Positions 3,307 through 29,897 of a DNA stretch of 37,953 nt are shown here, one piece after another. This DNA comes from a virus (taxonomy: Duplodnaviria; Heunggongvirae; Uroviricota; Caudoviricetes). Within the stretch, counting starts at the first letter, position 1. Each line of letters opens with the position of its first letter. Under the pieces are notes generated by a model. That model ran no database searches. It had not been told where the DNA came from and saw only the letters and a list, made by a program, of their open reading frames with translations. Location: IMG/VR virus record IMGVR_UViG_2563366924_000004, one strand, 5' to 3'. A program made the position numbers and the translations under genes.

Positions 3307-3882
3307 CTACGGCAGTGCTGGCCATTCAATATCCTGTGCAGTTGATGTATCAACACGGTTCAGCAACACCCGATACTTTTTCCAGGCTTCCAGCAATGAG
3401 GTTTCTTCCTCCGTTGCGATTTCCAGATCTACAGCATCCTGAAGTGGCGCTATATGCTCACTGGCTACCTGCATCAGGCTGTTTTTTGTTTCTTCCGCCT
3501 CCCGGATCCGGAACAGTTTTTCTGCTTCCGTATCCTTCACCCAGACTGTACCGTTCCACTTCTGAAACTCCCCTTCCGGCGATAACCAGGTAACATTTTC
3601 CGGTAACGGACCGAGTTCAGAAATAAATAACGCGTCGCCGGAAGCCACGTCATAAACCATTTTACCCCGATGATCTTCAACGAGATGCCACGATGACTCA
3701 TCACTGTTGAAAACAGCCACGAAGCCAGCCGGAATATCTGGCGGTGCAATATCGGTACTGTTTGCTGGCAGACCTGTATGAGGCGGAATATATGCATCAC
3801 CTTCACCAATAAATTCATTAGTTCCGGCCAGCAGATTATAAATTTTTATGGTCCGTGGTTGTTCACTCATTCTGAATGCCAT
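3307..3882 (-). CDS. tfa: tail fibre assembly protein (Tfa), 191 aa
   Basis: Directly downstream of and abutting the side tail fibre gene; Tfa-family length and sequence. Confidence 0.85.
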
Positions 3883-7963: not shown

Positions 7964-10900
7964 TCAGCTGATACTGATGCCTGCGGTGGCTTTCTTCATC
8001 ACCACAACCAGCAAATCGCTGATACTTGCTGTGGGATACCAGTCATTTACCAGCCATGCTGACACCGAAAACTCCAGCGTCATGTGGCCGTGACCAGCTG
8101 GCATATCAATAACACCACTGTAAATCAGCGTATTATCCAGCGCGGTACGGTTATAAATTTCAGCACCATTTTTCTTCACTATCAGGCGGCATGAGGAGTA
8201 AATATCAGTATGCTCTCTCTCATGTTTAGCACCGCTGAATGCCACCGCCGGAATAACAATCTGCCGGTCAAACGGCTGATCGTCATAAATCCTGACGGTA
8301 ATGGTCCCTGATGGCCACCGCTCCGGTGCCCGGGAGTCCCGCGGGAAAGCCTTACCCACTGTTTTGACAATATCGCCTTCAATCTGGTTGGCTGACAGTT
8401 TCCCTTTAATCTGACAGTTTTCATTTATCGTAACGTTGTTGAGCGTCCCGGCGTTCGCATTCACACTGCCACTGATATCTGCATTTTTAGCGGTCAGCTT
8501 TCCGTCCGGTGTCAGGGAAAATGCAGGAGGATTACCGCCGCTGGTAATGGTGGGAGCCGTCAGATATTTCAGGAACACTTCATTCATGAATATCTGATCA
8601 CCCTGACCAACAAACATCGGTTTTGTGTTGCCATTTGCAGGATTAATCATCGCAATCCTGTCTGCCGCCAGCAGCACCTGACTCTGCATGCCGTCGGGGG
8701 TGTTCTCAATACCGGCACCGATACCCGCAATATAAAGGCGTCCGTCCTGCATCTGCTGCAGCTTCACAGCCCACATGCTGTTCAGATTATTATTTGTATC
8801 AACCTGAACCTTCTGTATCTGCTGGATCGCTGCACTCTGGTCTTCCAGTTTCTTATTGACGGTCTGTGTGATTTCATTGCTGACATCCGTAATGGATGTC
8901 CTGATTTCAGCCAGGTCAGGCGCAAGCTGACCGTTATCAATCTGCGTCCACAGCTCCTGAGCCAGATGGGTTTTCCCTATCTCGCCTTTGAAAAAATCCA
9001 GATAGCCGGATGCGTCATCACTCGGCTGACCAACAGCCTCCACGAATGCCGATTTGCCAACGGTGTTCACACTGCGAACGTAAAAATAATAATTATGGCC
9101 CGGCCTGATATTGATACTGGCGGCTATCCAGTACAGCGCCGTGCCAAGATAGCGTGCTGTGGTTTCAACCTGCCTGATATCCGCAATCCGCTTTTCCGAG
9201 AACCAGAACTCAAACTGTACCGTCGGATCATAAACCGCAAGATGCGGCGTGGCGGTTATCTGAAAATAGCCCGGCGTCAGCTCAATCCGCGACGGCGCTG
9301 CCGGTGCGGCAATCCGGAACGATACCGACGCCGGATCGCCCTGCTGCCCCCACGCATTTACCGCCCGGACTGTCAGCCTGTAGTTCCCCAGAGCCAGTTG
9401 TGTGAAGCGGTAAGTGGTTTCCGTCGTCCGGGCCGTGCTGACCAGCCGCTCACTGCCGTCATCCGCTGCCACGGTCAGGCGAAGCAGGAAGCTCACGCCC
9501 TTCACCACCTTCGGCGTGTCCCAGCGGGCCAGCACCTGGTATTCCCCGCTGTCTGCAGTGACTTCTGCGGTCAGGTGCTGCACCGCTGGCGGCGTGACAC
9601 CGTTCACCGTGCCACTCTGTTCGCCGTCAAAGTGCGCCCCGTTATCCACGATGACCTCTTTTTCCGGCACATGCTGCACGGCGGTGATGGCATACGTGCC
9701 GTCGTCGTTCTCACGGATACTCACGCAGCGGAACAGTCGCTGGCGCAGCCTCGGCAGCTTCAGCCCCCATACGCTGTATTCAGCAACACCGTCAGGAACA
9801 CGGCTCACTTTCACCTTCACGCCGTCGGTGACGGACTGAACCTCCACGCTGACCGGATTGCCACTTCCGTCAACCAGGCTTATCAGCGTGGTACCGGAGG
9901 ATGGCAGCGTGATTTCACGGTCAAGCGTCAGCGTCCGGGTCAGGCTGTTCACCGCCAGCACACGACCACCGGTGCTGATACCGGCATAGTCATCATCACA
10001 GATTTCAATAACATCGCCCGGTACATGGCGAAGCCCTTCTGCGCCGACGCTGAAATCCACGGTCTGCGTTTCCAGCAGCTCCGTTTTAATCAGCCACAGC
10101 CCGGCTCGGTGTGCCTGCCCCCGGCTGGTACAGCCAAAGGCATCCATCTTCGTGACATTACGACCGTAACGGGCAATGGCCTGCGTGTCCTCCACAAGCT
10201 CTGTCGCCGTCTCCCAGCCGTTATCCGGGTCAATCCAGTTCACCTCAACGGCATTATGGCGGTCCTTCAGGGCGCTGAAGCTGTAGCGGAACGGCGCGCC
10301 ATCATCCGGCATCACCACATTACTGCGGTTATAGGTCCACACCTTATCCGACGGTCGGTCCTGCACGAACGTCAGCGTCTGCCCGTTCCATACCGGCATA
10401 CAGCGCATCGCCGAGCAGAAATCACTGAGCACATCCCACGCCTTGCGCTGTGTGGTCAGCCAGGCATTACAGGTGATGCGCGGCTCCGTGCTGCCAAAGC
10501 CGTCCGGCACCGACTGGTCGCAGTACTGGCCGATGACATACAGCGCCCATTTATCCACATCTGCCGCACCAAGACGTTTCCCCATGCCGTAGCGCGGGTG
10601 GGTCAGCATATCCCACAGACACCAGGCCATGTTGTTGCTGTATGCCGGTTTAAACGTTCCGTCCCAGATACCGCTGTATTGCCGCGTCTGCGGGTTATAA
10701 TTCGACGGCACCTGCAGAATACGCCCGCGCAGATGATAATTACGGCTCACCTGCTGGCTGCCGAACTGCTCCGAATCCACCTGTACGCCGACCAGTGCCG
10801 TGTTCGGGTAGCACTGTTTCACATCGATGATTTCGGTGTATGACGACCAGAGCGTTTTGTTCTGCAGCTGGTCTGTGGTACTGTCCGGCGTCATTCTGCG

Positions 10901-22516: not shown

Positions 22517-26197
<3,681 letters not shown>

Positions 26198-26223
<26 letters not shown>

Positions 26224-26743
26224 TCAGCAACCCCGGTATCAGTTCATCCAGCGCGGCTGCTTTGTTCATGGCTTTGATGATATCCCGTTTCAGGAAATCA
26301 ACATGTCGGTTTTCCAGTTCCGGAAAACGCCGCTGCACCGACAGGGGGATCCCGTCGAGAATACTGGCAATTTCACCTGCGATCCGCGACAGCACGAAAG
26401 TACAGAATGCGGTTTCCACCACTTCAGCGGAGTCTCTGGCATTCTTCAGTTCCTGTGCGTCGGCCTGCGCACGCGTAAGTCGATGGCGTTCGTACTCAAT
26501 AGTCCCTGGCTGGAGATCTGCCTCGCTGGCCTGCCGCAGTTCTTCAACTTCCCGGCGCAGCTTTTCGTTCTCAATTTCAGCATCCCTTTCGGCATACCAT
26601 CTTATAACGGCGGCAGAGTCATAAAGCACCTCATTACCCTTGCCACCGCCTCGCAGAACGGGCATTCCCTGTTCCTGCCAGTTCTGAATGGTACGGATAC
26701 TCGCACCGAAAATGTCAGCCAGCTGCTTTTTGTTGACTTCCAT
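26198..26743 (-). CDS. Nu1: terminase small subunit Nu1, 181 aa
   Basis: Lambda Nu1-like N-terminus MEVNKKQLADIFGASIRTIQNWQEQGMPVLRGGGKGNEVLYD; cos site immediately upstream. Confidence 0.9.
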
Positions 26744-26759
26744 TGTTCATTCCACGGCC

Positions 26760-27000
26760 AAAAACAGAGAAAGGAAACGACAGAGGCCCAAAAGCTCGTT
26801 TTCAGCACCTGTCGTTTCCTTTCTTTTCAGGGGGTATTTTAAATAAAAACATTAAGTTACAACGAAGAAGAACGGAAACGCCTTAAACCGGAAAATTTTC
26901 ATAAATAGCGAAAACCCGCGAGGTCGCCGCCCCGTAACCTGTCGGATCGCCGGAAAGGACCCGCAAAATGATAATAATTATCATCTGCATGTCACAACGT
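26760..27000 (-). promoter_or_regulatory. cos: lambda-type cos region (cosQ-cosN-cosB); 12-nt cohesive end sequence at 26921-26932
   Basis: Minus-strand GGGCGGCGACCTCGCGGGTTTTCGCTATTTATGAAAATTTTCCGGTTTAAGG equals the lambda left end as I recall it; lambda right-end-like sequence on the other side. Confidence 0.8.
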
Positions 27001-27131
27001 GCATCTACGCCATCAAACCACGTCAAATAATCAATTATGACGCAGATATCGTATTAATTGATCTGCATCAACTTAACGTAAAAACAACTTCAGACAATAC
27101 AAATCAGCGACACTGAATACGGGACAACCTC

Positions 27132-27365
27132 ATGTCAACGAAGAACAGAACCCGCAGAACAACAACCCGCAACATCCGCTTTCCTAACCAAATGATTGAA
27201 CAAATTAACATCGCTCTTGAGCAAAAAGGGTCCGGGAATTTCTCAGCCTGGGTCATTGAAGCCTGCCGCCGGAGACTGTGCTCAGAAAAAAGAGTTTCTT
27301 CTGAAGCAAACAAAGAAAAGAGTGACATTACTGAATTGCTCAGAAAACAGGTCAGACCAGATTGA
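27132..27365 (+). CDS. ynfO: small ribbon-helix-helix-like protein, 77 aa (YnfO-like)
   Basis: Basic N-terminus followed by beta-strand/two-helix pattern IRFPNQMIEQINIALEQKG..NFSAWVIEACRRRL typical of RHH DNA binders. Confidence 0.6.
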   Translation: MSTKNRTRRTTTRNIRFPNQMIEQINIALEQKGSGNFSAWVIEACRRRLCSEKRVSSEANKEKSDITELLRKQVRPD

Positions 27366-27422
27366 AGCAATTTAGATAATCGTGCAGACTACGCCCCCTC
27401 ATATCACATGGAAGGTTTATCT

Positions 27423-27833
27423 ATGGATCAGGTAGTCATTTTTAAACAAATATTTGATAAAGTTCGAAACGATTTAAACTATCAATGGTTTTATTCTGAG
27501 CTAAAACGTCACAATGTCTCACATTACATTTACTATTTAGCCACAGAGAATGTTCATATTGTATTAAAAAATGATAATACAGTGTTATTAAAGGGCCTAA
27601 AAAACATTGTGTCTGTCAAATTTTCAAAGGATAGGCATCTTATAGAAACGACCTCTAATAAGCTGAAATCCAGAGAGATCACATTTCAGGAATACAGAAG
27701 AAACCTTGCTAAAGCAGGAGTTTTTCGGTGGGTTACAAATATCCACGAACAAAAAAGATATTACTATACCTTTGATAATTCATTACTATTTACTGAAAGC
27801 ATCCAGAAAACTACACAGATCTTACCACGCTAA
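27423..27833 (+). CDS. ydfO: DUF1398-family protein (YdfO-like), about 136 aa
   Basis: ORF 27408-27833; preferred start at second ATG, which has GGAAGG 6 nt upstream; hairpin at 27843-27868 downstream. Confidence 0.6.
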
Positions 27834-27984
27834 ACCATAACGTCCGGCTTCTCTCACTCCTGAGCCGGACTGCATTGGTTTAATAAAAACCATCAACAAT
27901 TGTGATTTAGATATTCGGAACCATTCAAATATAACAAAACCCCGTAAAAACGAGGTTTATGGATAAATTTTATTATTGAATACA

Positions 27985-28157
27985 TCAGATTAAATTAATC
28001 TTGACATCATAGCTTTCAAGACCCGTCATTTTTTCCCGTGCGGTAAACTGAATACTGGTAACTTCTTTCCCGGTCTTTTTCTTAAGTTCAATAATTTTTT
28101 TGTTATATATTCAGAAATATCTGCTTCTGCTTTTGTTTTTAAGTTTTCAATATTCAT
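27985..28157 (-). pseudogene. gnsB: Gns (GnsA/GnsB)-family gene with -1 frameshift inside an A7 tract
   Basis: Frame 1 gives MNIENLKTKAEADISEYITKK then a stop after 44 codons; the next frame gives IIELKKKTGKEVTSIQFTAREKMTGLESYDVKINLI; the two halves join to a 57-aa Gns-like protein if the run were A8; AAGAGGAAATG RBS. Confidence 0.6.
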
Positions 28158-28328
28158 CATTTCCTCTTTTAGTCTGTTATGACTTTCCAGTTACACAGTA
28201 AGTCGATTATATGGTGCAAACGTGTAAAAGATAAGATGAAACATCGCAATAATCAACATACGATAGTCTAAATTTTACACAAACAGACAAAGAGAATTTT
28301 CCTGAATTATCAATGCAATAGCATCAAA

Positions 28329-28559
28329 TCAACTCAAGAGCCTTATTGCTGCTTCCAGAATTTCTTCTGAAGTAACATGTCGATCCGCGGCTACATAAAT
28401 GACTTTATGATCTCCGGTCAGAGATGGAAACCCTGCGGCCATTACAGTAAGGTGTGTTTTTTCGCCATTTGGATATTCACGCATGATGGTGTTAACTCCA
28501 GTCATCGCTGGCACTACCACTGCTGGTTCAGAGTTAAAAAAAACTATGATTTTTTTCAT
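28329..28559 (-). CDS. ynfN: YnfN-like small protein, about 76 aa
   Basis: ORF 28329-28601; start taken at MKKIIVFFNSEP. Confidence 0.5.
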   Translation of the reverse strand: MKKIIVFFNSEPAVVVPAMTGVNTIMREYPNGEKTHLTVMAAGFPSLTGDHKVIYVAADRHVTSEEILEAAIRLLS

Positions 28560-28604
28560 GATGTTACCGTAGTATGTGAGTATCCATCGAATAGACACCA
28601 AGCC

Positions 28605-28623
28605 AAAAAGCTCCCGAAGGAGC
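28605..28623 (-). terminator. intrinsic terminator downstream of cspI
   Basis: Minus-strand stem gctcc/ggagc with cgaa-type loop followed by TTTTT. Confidence 0.45.
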
Positions 28624-28830
28624 CTTCATTTTCACTTTTTTAAATCCAACGACAGACGGCTGGCATTTAAGTATTGTGAAATATTATCAAATGTAATCAT
28701 CATTGATTTACAAAAGATACATTTTGCCCCGAAAGGATTCATGTCAGAAACATCAAAAGATGATGTTCTATACTGGGAACCATGACAACACGGGCATCTA
28801 AAGTGAATATGGTTTGTAATATTGTCTACC

Positions 28831-29043
28831 TCAAAGCGCCACTACATGAACAGCGGCAGGACCTTTAGGTCCGTTCTCAATACCAAATTCAACTTCCTGA
28901 TTCTCAGTTAATGTTTTGAAATCGTTGCTCTGAATTGCTGAGAAATGGACAAACACATCTTTGCTGCCATCTTTCGGCGTGATGAAACCAAAACCTTTTT
29001 CAGGGTTAAACCATTTTACTAAACCAGTCATTTTGTTAGACAT
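28831..29043 (-). CDS. cspI: cold shock protein CspI, 70 aa
   Basis: CspA-family cold shock domain with RNP motifs KGFGFI and VFVHF; matches my recollection of CspI. Confidence 0.9.
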
Positions 29044-29393
29044 AATTATTACCTTTTGAAGAAATTAGCCCTTGGGCAGAATGGTCCGAAAAAAAATATC
29101 AGAGAGAAAAACCAACAAGGAAATCTCAAGAGGTACAAATAATAAAATTATAACAATGACTGCTTCAGATAAATTTGTAACAAACCAGAACACCATTAAC
29201 GCATGATTAACCACCCATAGCAAGGATTACTTTTGTAAAGAAAAACACAGCAATGAAAGAATAGCTTTATTTATTAATAAAACGTGTCATTCTGATTAAG
29301 ACCTTTTATCTTACCCTTAAGATTTCAGGAATTTTGGCTCATGGAAGAGTCCTTTTTATTTAAATTTTACATTCCGCGGGTAATGACTCCAAC

Positions 29394-29897
29394 TTATTGG
29401 TAGTGTTTTATGTTCAGATAATGCCCGATGACTTTGTCATGCAGCTCCACCGATTTTGAGAACGACAGTGACTTCCTGCCCAGCCTTGCCAGATGCTGCC
29501 TCAGATTCAGGTTATGCCGCTCAATGCGCTGCGTATATCGCTTGCTGATAACGTGCAGTTCTCCCTTCAGGCGTGATTCATAAAGCGGCCAGCCATCCGT
29601 CATCCATACCACGACCTCAAAGGCCGACAGCAGGCCCAGAAGACGCTCCAGCGTGGCCAGCGTGCGTTCACCGAATACGTGCGCAACAACCGTCCTCCGT
29701 ATCCTGTCATACGCGTAAAACAGCCAGCGCTGGCGCGATTTAGCCCCGACATAGCCCCACTGTTCGTCCATTTCCGCGCAGACGATGACGTCACTGCCCG
29801 GCTGTATGCGCGAGGTTACCGACTGCGGCCTGAGTTTTTTAAGTGACGTAAAATCGTGTTGAGGCCAACGCCCATAATGCGGGCAGTTGCCCGGCAT
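29394..29897 (-). CDS. insB: IS1 InsB reading frame, 167 aa (normally expressed as InsAB fusion by frameshift)
   Basis: Matches IS1 InsB sequence. Confidence 0.95.

Follow-up and report, generated by a model that had tools for sequence, protein, structure and literature searches.

The two co-oriented genes beside cos in a 37,953-nucleotide stretch of tailed-phage DNA (IMG/VR record IMGVR_UViG_2563366924_000004; the whole stretch is referred to as the window) are ynfO and ydfO of a Qin-type lambda-like prophage of E. coli, a pair that is already named and already known. They are probably two separate accessory ('moron') genes that recombination has set side by side, and not a functional module. 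The finding is an ordinary one.

The first protein (77 aa) matched Pfam DUF3950 (E 2.7e-21, 75.6 bits, cut-off 25) and NCBIfam YlcI_YnfO_N (NF041551; 36.6 bits, cut-off 30), and the second (136 aa) matched Pfam DUF1398 (PF07166) over profile positions 1-119 of 119 (E 1.7e-46, 157.5 bits, cut-off 22). These scores, all above the curated cut-offs, place the two proteins in the YlcI/YnfO and DUF1398/YdfO families, respectively. YdfO was identical at 140 of 141 residues to PDB 2HH8, the NMR structure of E. coli YdfO. The first-pass annotation of this DNA had assigned the second protein to DUF1398, which the full-length Pfam match bears out; the K-12 names ynfO and ydfO and the solved structure of YdfO had gone unrecognised. 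A 1.6-kb region showed 99.9% DNA identity to RefSeq loci annotated ynfO, ydfO, gnsB and ynfN. Of 5426 complete E. coli genomes, 1035 contained at least 80% of this region, and both genes carry these names in the RefSeq annotation of about 1,000 complete genomes of the species. The pN/pS ratio was 0.14-0.21 for the ribbon-helix-helix (RHH) domain of the first gene and 0.24 for ydfO compared with its lambda homologue; such purifying selection indicates that ynfO and ydfO are real genes. Both were still uncharacterised in a 2024 review (PMC11551758).

The gene order nohA, cos, ynfO, ydfO, gnsB, ynfN, cspI is common to the window and the K-12 Qin prophage, and the right end of the Qin type reads in full nohA, cos, ynfO, ydfO, gnsB, ynfN, ynfR, ynfQ, cspI. 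Unlike K-12 Qin, the present DNA has upstream head and tail genes that look complete, a gnsB gene with a 1-nt frameshift, and IS1 in the lysis region.

The features of the locus are listed in Table 1. The arrangement described from the sequence earlier, a 77-aa reading frame, a gap of 57 nt (27366-27422), a 136-aa reading frame and a hairpin after the second gene, was confirmed in every element. The ATG at 27423, which opens the 136-aa form of YdfO and is the start used in RefSeq, is preceded at 7 nt by a Shine-Dalgarno sequence (GGAAGG). The cos sequence aligned with the annotated cos site of phage DE3 and lies 200 nt upstream of the ynfO ATG. Nu1 and terminase A are found beyond cos on the other strand, and ynfO and ydfO are thus encoded opposite to the late operon. 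A terminator scan of the window found no terminator between ynfO and ydfO. The hairpin after ydfO had a dG of -21.9 kcal/mol (z = -5.5 compared with shuffles) and was not called by the terminator scan; because it lacks a U tract, it is not a canonical intrinsic terminator.

Table 1. Positions of genes, sites and other features around cos, ynfO and ydfO in the window
Feature	Position	Strand	Remarks
terminase A	24298-26223	-	lambda-like head/tail genes on the minus strand end with terminase A and Nu1
Nu1	26198-26743	-	Pfam Phage_Nu1, E 5.6e-101
lambda-type cos cohesive-end sequence AGGTCGCCGCCC	26921..26932	- (GGGCGGCGACCT on the - strand)	read from sequence
promoter-like site GTGACA-16-TATCAT	26995-26968	-	sigma-70-like; points toward cos and Nu1
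perfect Fur-type 7-1-7 box TGATAATaATTATCA	26969..26983		unique in the window
consensus FNR box TTGATctgcATCAA	27058..27071		matches K-12 FNR target
candidate -10 hexamer GACAAT of a putative class II FNR-type ynfO promoter	27093..27098	+	proposed from spacing
ynfO	27132..27365	+	77-aa YlcI/YnfO (DUF3950) protein; probable Arc/Mnt-like RHH domain at about 12-50, variable C-terminal tail
mosaic joint, 54 nt specific to the Qin-type arrangement	27295..27348		pairwise blastn with lambda DE3
PdhR box AAcaGGTcagACCAgaT	27346..27362		overlaps the last ynfO codons; 61 nt before the ydfO start
ydfO	27423..27833	+	136-aa DUF1398 protein; 141 aa from the upstream ATG at 27408; A+T-rich, 32% G+C
9-bp G+C-rich hairpin 3' of ydfO	27842..27870		nested in outer stem 27831-27882; no U tract
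gnsB	27985-28160	-	1-nt deletion
IS1 transposase gene	29394-29897		between cspI and the holin gene

The two genes share a reading frame, and the only stop between them is one TGA (27363-27422). By a rough estimate the chance of this is about 0.13, and the shared frame is no evidence for programmed read-through. A false ynfO-ydfO fusion of 233 aa results when metagenome gene callers translate TGA as Trp. One such DUF3950-DUF1398 fusion (P0122) was rejected as a gene-calling artefact of this kind, as its DNA has a normal TGA stop.

To compare the locus with lambda, pairwise blastn with lambda DE3 was used. Positions 26701-27294, from Nu1 through about codon 54 of ynfO, were 96% identical, and positions 27349-27852, from the PdhR box onward, were 84% identical. 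The two blocks are separated by 54 nt here and by 613 nt in lambda, where the interval holds the tail of ylcI and the opposite-strand gene lambdap79/ybcW. At this joint the G+C content falls from about 43% to about 32%, and the RHH homologues diverge into C-terminal tails of at least eight unrelated kinds. Lambda and DLP12 likewise carry the RHH domain next to cos (98% identity over 53 residues), their DUF1398 protein is 79% identical to YdfO, and they share the Fur, FNR and PdhR boxes with the window. The lambda RHH protein, however, has 64 aa and a different tail, whereas YnfO has 77 aa. In both lambda and DLP12 the opposite-strand lambdap79/ybcW stands between the RHH gene and lambdap78/ybcV; the 613-nt lambda insert that contains it corresponds to 54 nt here, and in lambda bor comes next instead of the gnsB/csp cargo. 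In this comparison ynfO belongs to the block of cos and the packaging start and not to the cargo block, and ydfO opens the A+T-rich cargo island.

A 2-kb island of 30-40% G+C (27300-29400) carries ydfO, gnsB, ynfN, ynfQ and cspI between cos and IS1, and its start coincides exactly with the mosaic joint in the 3' part of ynfO. An intact 64-aa reading frame of the YlcI/YnfO family was also observed 200 nt from cos in phage DE3 (2883-3077) and in lambda (NC_001416, complement 48109-48303). It has no annotation in the lambda reference, DE3, HK629 and HK630 records, and is annotated in newer lambda-like records.

We further examined the distribution of the two genes. By tblastn, the RHH domain was found in 153 phage records and DUF1398 in 43. 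Among complete E. coli genomes, the RHH DNA occurred at 8362 places in 3785 genomes, with up to 12 per genome, and the ydfO/ybcV DNA at 3876 places in 3019 genomes. Stx and HK97-type phages carry the RHH gene on its own. Its distance to the divergent HNH gene of an HK97-type packaging module is 41 bp in phage BP-4795 and in three further contexts, where only opposite-strand genes follow it (Rz, an 82-aa reading frame or a TonB_C protein). DUF3950 was absent within 4 kb of all of about 30 diverged DUF1398 loci (at most 49% identity; ycgX type, Citrobacter, Klebsiella, Kluyvera, Raoultella, Pseudocitrobacter and Salmonella diarizonae), and a co-oriented reading frame of at least 60 aa directly upstream was absent in all eight loci inspected. 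Each gene is therefore common without the other, and the two are not conserved as a unit across contexts, as the genes of a type II toxin-antitoxin system would be. A scan of viral contigs with the RHH alignment yielded nothing beyond near-identical Qin-type loci and did not widen the diversity of the set. A tblastn match in a Pasteurella phage (40% identity) was judged spurious, as it falls on the antisense strand of a gene annotated as a repressor. Published lists of ylcI mutations were likewise set aside: the mutations are apparently read-mapping noise between paralogues and carry no functional content.

The regulatory sites around ynfO match published transcription-factor sites of K-12. 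The Fur box is the gel-shift-confirmed 'nohA' Fur site (PMC2189734). It overlaps the promoter-like site on the minus strand and adjoins a cosQ-like GGGTCCT; in lambda both arms of the palindrome are conserved and the sole difference is at the centre base. The palindrome was absent from the BP-4795 locus, which indicates that it is a feature of the lambda cos block and does not accompany the RHH gene. The FNR box is identical to the target found by ChIP-chip and EMSA as 'nohA/ydfO' and 'nohB' (PMC1802558). A fusion reading toward nohA was only weakly active there and changed little with fnr (PMC1802558). Transcription from the candidate GACAAT hexamer would be expected to start near 27105-27106, which puts the centre of the FNR box at about -40.5 to -41.5. 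Judged from the DNA sequence, this spacing would be that of a class II site reading toward ynfO. The hexamer was not called as a ynfO promoter by the consensus promoter scan. We infer that ynfO may be transcribed from a host-controlled promoter with a class II FNR box; the published 'nohA/ydfO' FNR site fits a promoter of the RHH gene better than a nohA promoter.

The PdhR box lies at the position of a PdhR site identified between ynfO and ydfO in K-12 by genomic SELEX (PMC7660256). A homologous PdhR site is found between ybcV and ybcW, the mRNAs of which fall about 10-fold in a pdhR mutant (PMC7660256), and both genes are up more than 1000-fold when T4 MotB perturbs H-NS repression (PMC7827196). 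Going by these reports, ydfO has its own PdhR-bound control region and is probably silenced by H-NS; it also responds to stress, as described below. In the Qin arrangement, transcription from the ynfO promoter could run on into ydfO, since both genes point the same way, only 57 nt separate them and no terminator intervenes. Some weak functional coupling of ynfO and ydfO is likewise possible, since the common orientation and the missing terminator count against full independence.

The same two features, together with the fixed position of the RHH gene at the edge of a variable cargo region and the start of the A+T-rich island just after the RHH domain, are what would be expected if YnfO were a dedicated transcriptional regulator of the accessory gene downstream of it. 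That gene would here be ydfO, which might serve lysogenic conversion or phage exclusion. We consider this unlikely. HNH/HK97-type phages have no co-oriented gene at all downstream of the RHH gene, ydfO/ybcV is already under PdhR and probably under H-NS, and a search for an operator-like motif common to the lambda-type and BP-4795-type RHH contexts gave none above shuffles.

Two separate moron genes, our preferred reading, agree with the features of ydfO, which resembles a lambdoid moron in its low G+C content (32%, compared with 51% for the window), its own PdhR site and its orientation opposite to the late operon. The FNR box of ynfO and the nonessential lambdap78 belong to the same picture. 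The placement of the pair in a nonessential accessory region adjoining cos, as proposed in the first-pass annotation, also holds; the region is A+T-rich, and lambdap78, the lambda homologue of the DUF1398 protein, was found to be nonessential by CRISPRi (PMC10695390).

YnfO is probably an Arc/Mnt-like RHH protein; all structural tests agree and none was significant. The suggestion of an RHH-like fold made from the sequence earlier is thus upheld in part, in that YnfO looks like a small RHH DNA binder by AF2, Foldseek and hhalign, at scores short of significance. In the alignment of the family, residues 1-50 form a conserved core with the motif TTTRNIRFPN, a helix, KGSGN and a second helix, and the turn K32-G33-S34-G35-N36 has the form G-x-S/T/N found between RHH helices. 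The AF2 model of the YnfO monomer showed coil at residues 1-18 and helices at 19-32 and 34-73, with a core pLDDT of about 82; the RHH strand would form only in the dimer. The best Foldseek matches in the PDB were all RHH proteins (Arc at the top, ParD2, Reg576, ArtA and PrpA), with E values of 3.5 or more, and the RHH antitoxin KacA was also among the structural neighbours. In hhalign, residues 11-33 of YnfO were placed on residues 8-30 of Arc, which is the expected register, with P = 0.068. Searches with the YnfO sequence and profile gave no RHH match in the PDB, nor in Pfam at E values up to 10.

Like Arc and Mnt of phage P22, YnfO is a small phage protein with a basic N-terminal arm, a strand of the form x-N-x-R-(F/W/M)-P and then two helices with a G-x-S/N turn. 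DNA is contacted by Q9, N11 and R13 in Arc and by H6, N8 and R10 in Mnt. In the hhalign register, T12, N14 and R16 of YnfO fall on Q9, N11 and R13 of Arc, so that the basic arm and the strand T12-R13-N14-I15-R16-F17 would be the counterpart of the Q/H-x-N-x-R strand with which Arc and Mnt read DNA. YnfO differs from Arc and Mnt in that it has no significant sequence or profile similarity to them and that its gene lies beside cos, whereas theirs lie in an immI-type region. YnfO would most likely be a small dimeric RHH DNA-binding regulator of the Arc/Mnt kind.

It is conceivable, at a low probability, that the RHH protein itself, rather than the pair, is a conserved regulator that the lysogen expresses under the control of host FNR and Fur and that is encoded antisense at the entry to the packaging genes in lambda-type and HK97-type phages. 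Such a protein could silence terminase or cos in the prophage, or control the neighbouring cargo according to anaerobiosis and iron. A narrower and slightly less probable proposal is that the RHH protein binds near cos or near the start of the packaging genes, with YdfO as an unrelated neighbour. It would then, at no better odds, silence terminase expression or cos cutting in the lysogen, or hinder a superinfecting relative. Capsid-forming satellites have a YlcI/YnfO protein listed next to their packaging genes (PMC13612085). The RHH gene is always divergent beside the first packaging gene, which is Nu1 across cos or the HNH gene at 41 bp, and in the lambda comparison it falls in the 96% identity block with cos and Nu1. 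The argument is one of position only, however, and the two kinds of packaging context have unrelated upstream DNA. To our knowledge, no packaging role of a protein of this type has been described in lambda, which also speaks against the proposal.

The first-pass annotation had compared the pair to toxin-antitoxin and anti-phage modules. In a type II system of this kind, YnfO would be an RHH antitoxin whose tail neutralises YdfO as a new toxin, with the complex autoregulating a single promoter. The gene order would suit this, a small RHH protein gene upstream of a larger, co-oriented one at 57 nt, as would the antitoxins ParD2, KacA and PrpA among the structural neighbours, which like YnfO have an N-terminal RHH domain and a C-terminal tail and are encoded upstream of a larger gene, and a YnfO tail different from those of homologues without DUF1398 downstream. 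Unlike these antitoxins, YnfO has no conserved partner gene and no known toxin family downstream, and its tail is the product of mosaic recombination at the joint. In Pfam only the two DUF families matched and no toxin family, and PADLOC (PADLOC-DB v2) gave no family at E values up to 1 for either protein. With the genes unlinked outside one mosaic arrangement, an opposite-strand gene splitting the pair in lambda and DLP12, a PdhR site belonging to ydfO (PMC7660256), solitary chromosomal paralogues such as ycgX maintained without a partner and an apparent natural fusion that is an artefact, such a module is very improbable.

DUF1398 is a small family, with 200 clusters at 50% identity among 1.84 billion representatives. 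In a scan of one genome per species with an alignment of seven sequences, it was found only in Enterobacteriaceae. The AF2 model of YdfO was poor (pLDDT 50.6), and its Foldseek matches were discounted, as 2HH8 itself was not recovered. YdfO would be a cytoplasmic protein encoded by A+T-rich DNA, and its fold is classed in a Pfam family of its own, DUF1398. Databases label DUF1398 proteins 'head protein' (PHROG 413 and RefSeq phage records) or 'putative envelope protein' (lambda records). Both labels are unsupported by anything we found, because the sequence as read has no signal peptide or membrane segment, the gene lies outside the structural operon and lambdap78 is nonessential.

Previous reports bear on the behaviour of ydfO in the cell. 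The gene is strongly induced by ionic liquid, and its overexpression was reported to raise oxidative-stress resistance (PMC4077768). In a TraDIS study, ydfO carried no transposon insertions, though it is not essential (PMC5821084). To us, the gap suggests protection by a nucleoid protein, a reading of our own.

Some observations on the neighbouring DNA and on the databases are added here. The gnsB gene has A7 instead of the A8 of the RefSeq loci, and the frameshift gives a product of 44 aa instead of 57 aa; this is either a pseudogene or a sequencing error. The region from cspI to the holin gene is broken up by the IS1 transposase gene, and the matching RefSeq locus has a frameshift in the adjacent DUF1327 gene and lacks an endolysin annotation. 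From the insertion, the frameshift and the missing endolysin annotation, the lysis cassette of the present prophage looks damaged. Lambda DNA was also observed as a contaminant in assemblies of organisms unrelated to its host, namely Pseudomonas, Kitasatospora, Brevibacillus, Flavobacterium, a spider and Staphylococcus, in contigs of about 3.5 kb (many in ENA) and of 48.5 kb. The contigs of about 3.5 kb were taken as a sequencing control fragment. Such contamination inflates the apparent host range of both families.

These findings are of small weight, as both genes are catalogued in the E. coli 'y-ome' and the structure of YdfO is already solved. The outcome removes a tempting yet unsupported toxin-antitoxin or defence label from the pair. 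A useful point for the lambda family is that the lambda reference genome has an unannotated gene adjoining cos for a protein that is probably of the RHH type.
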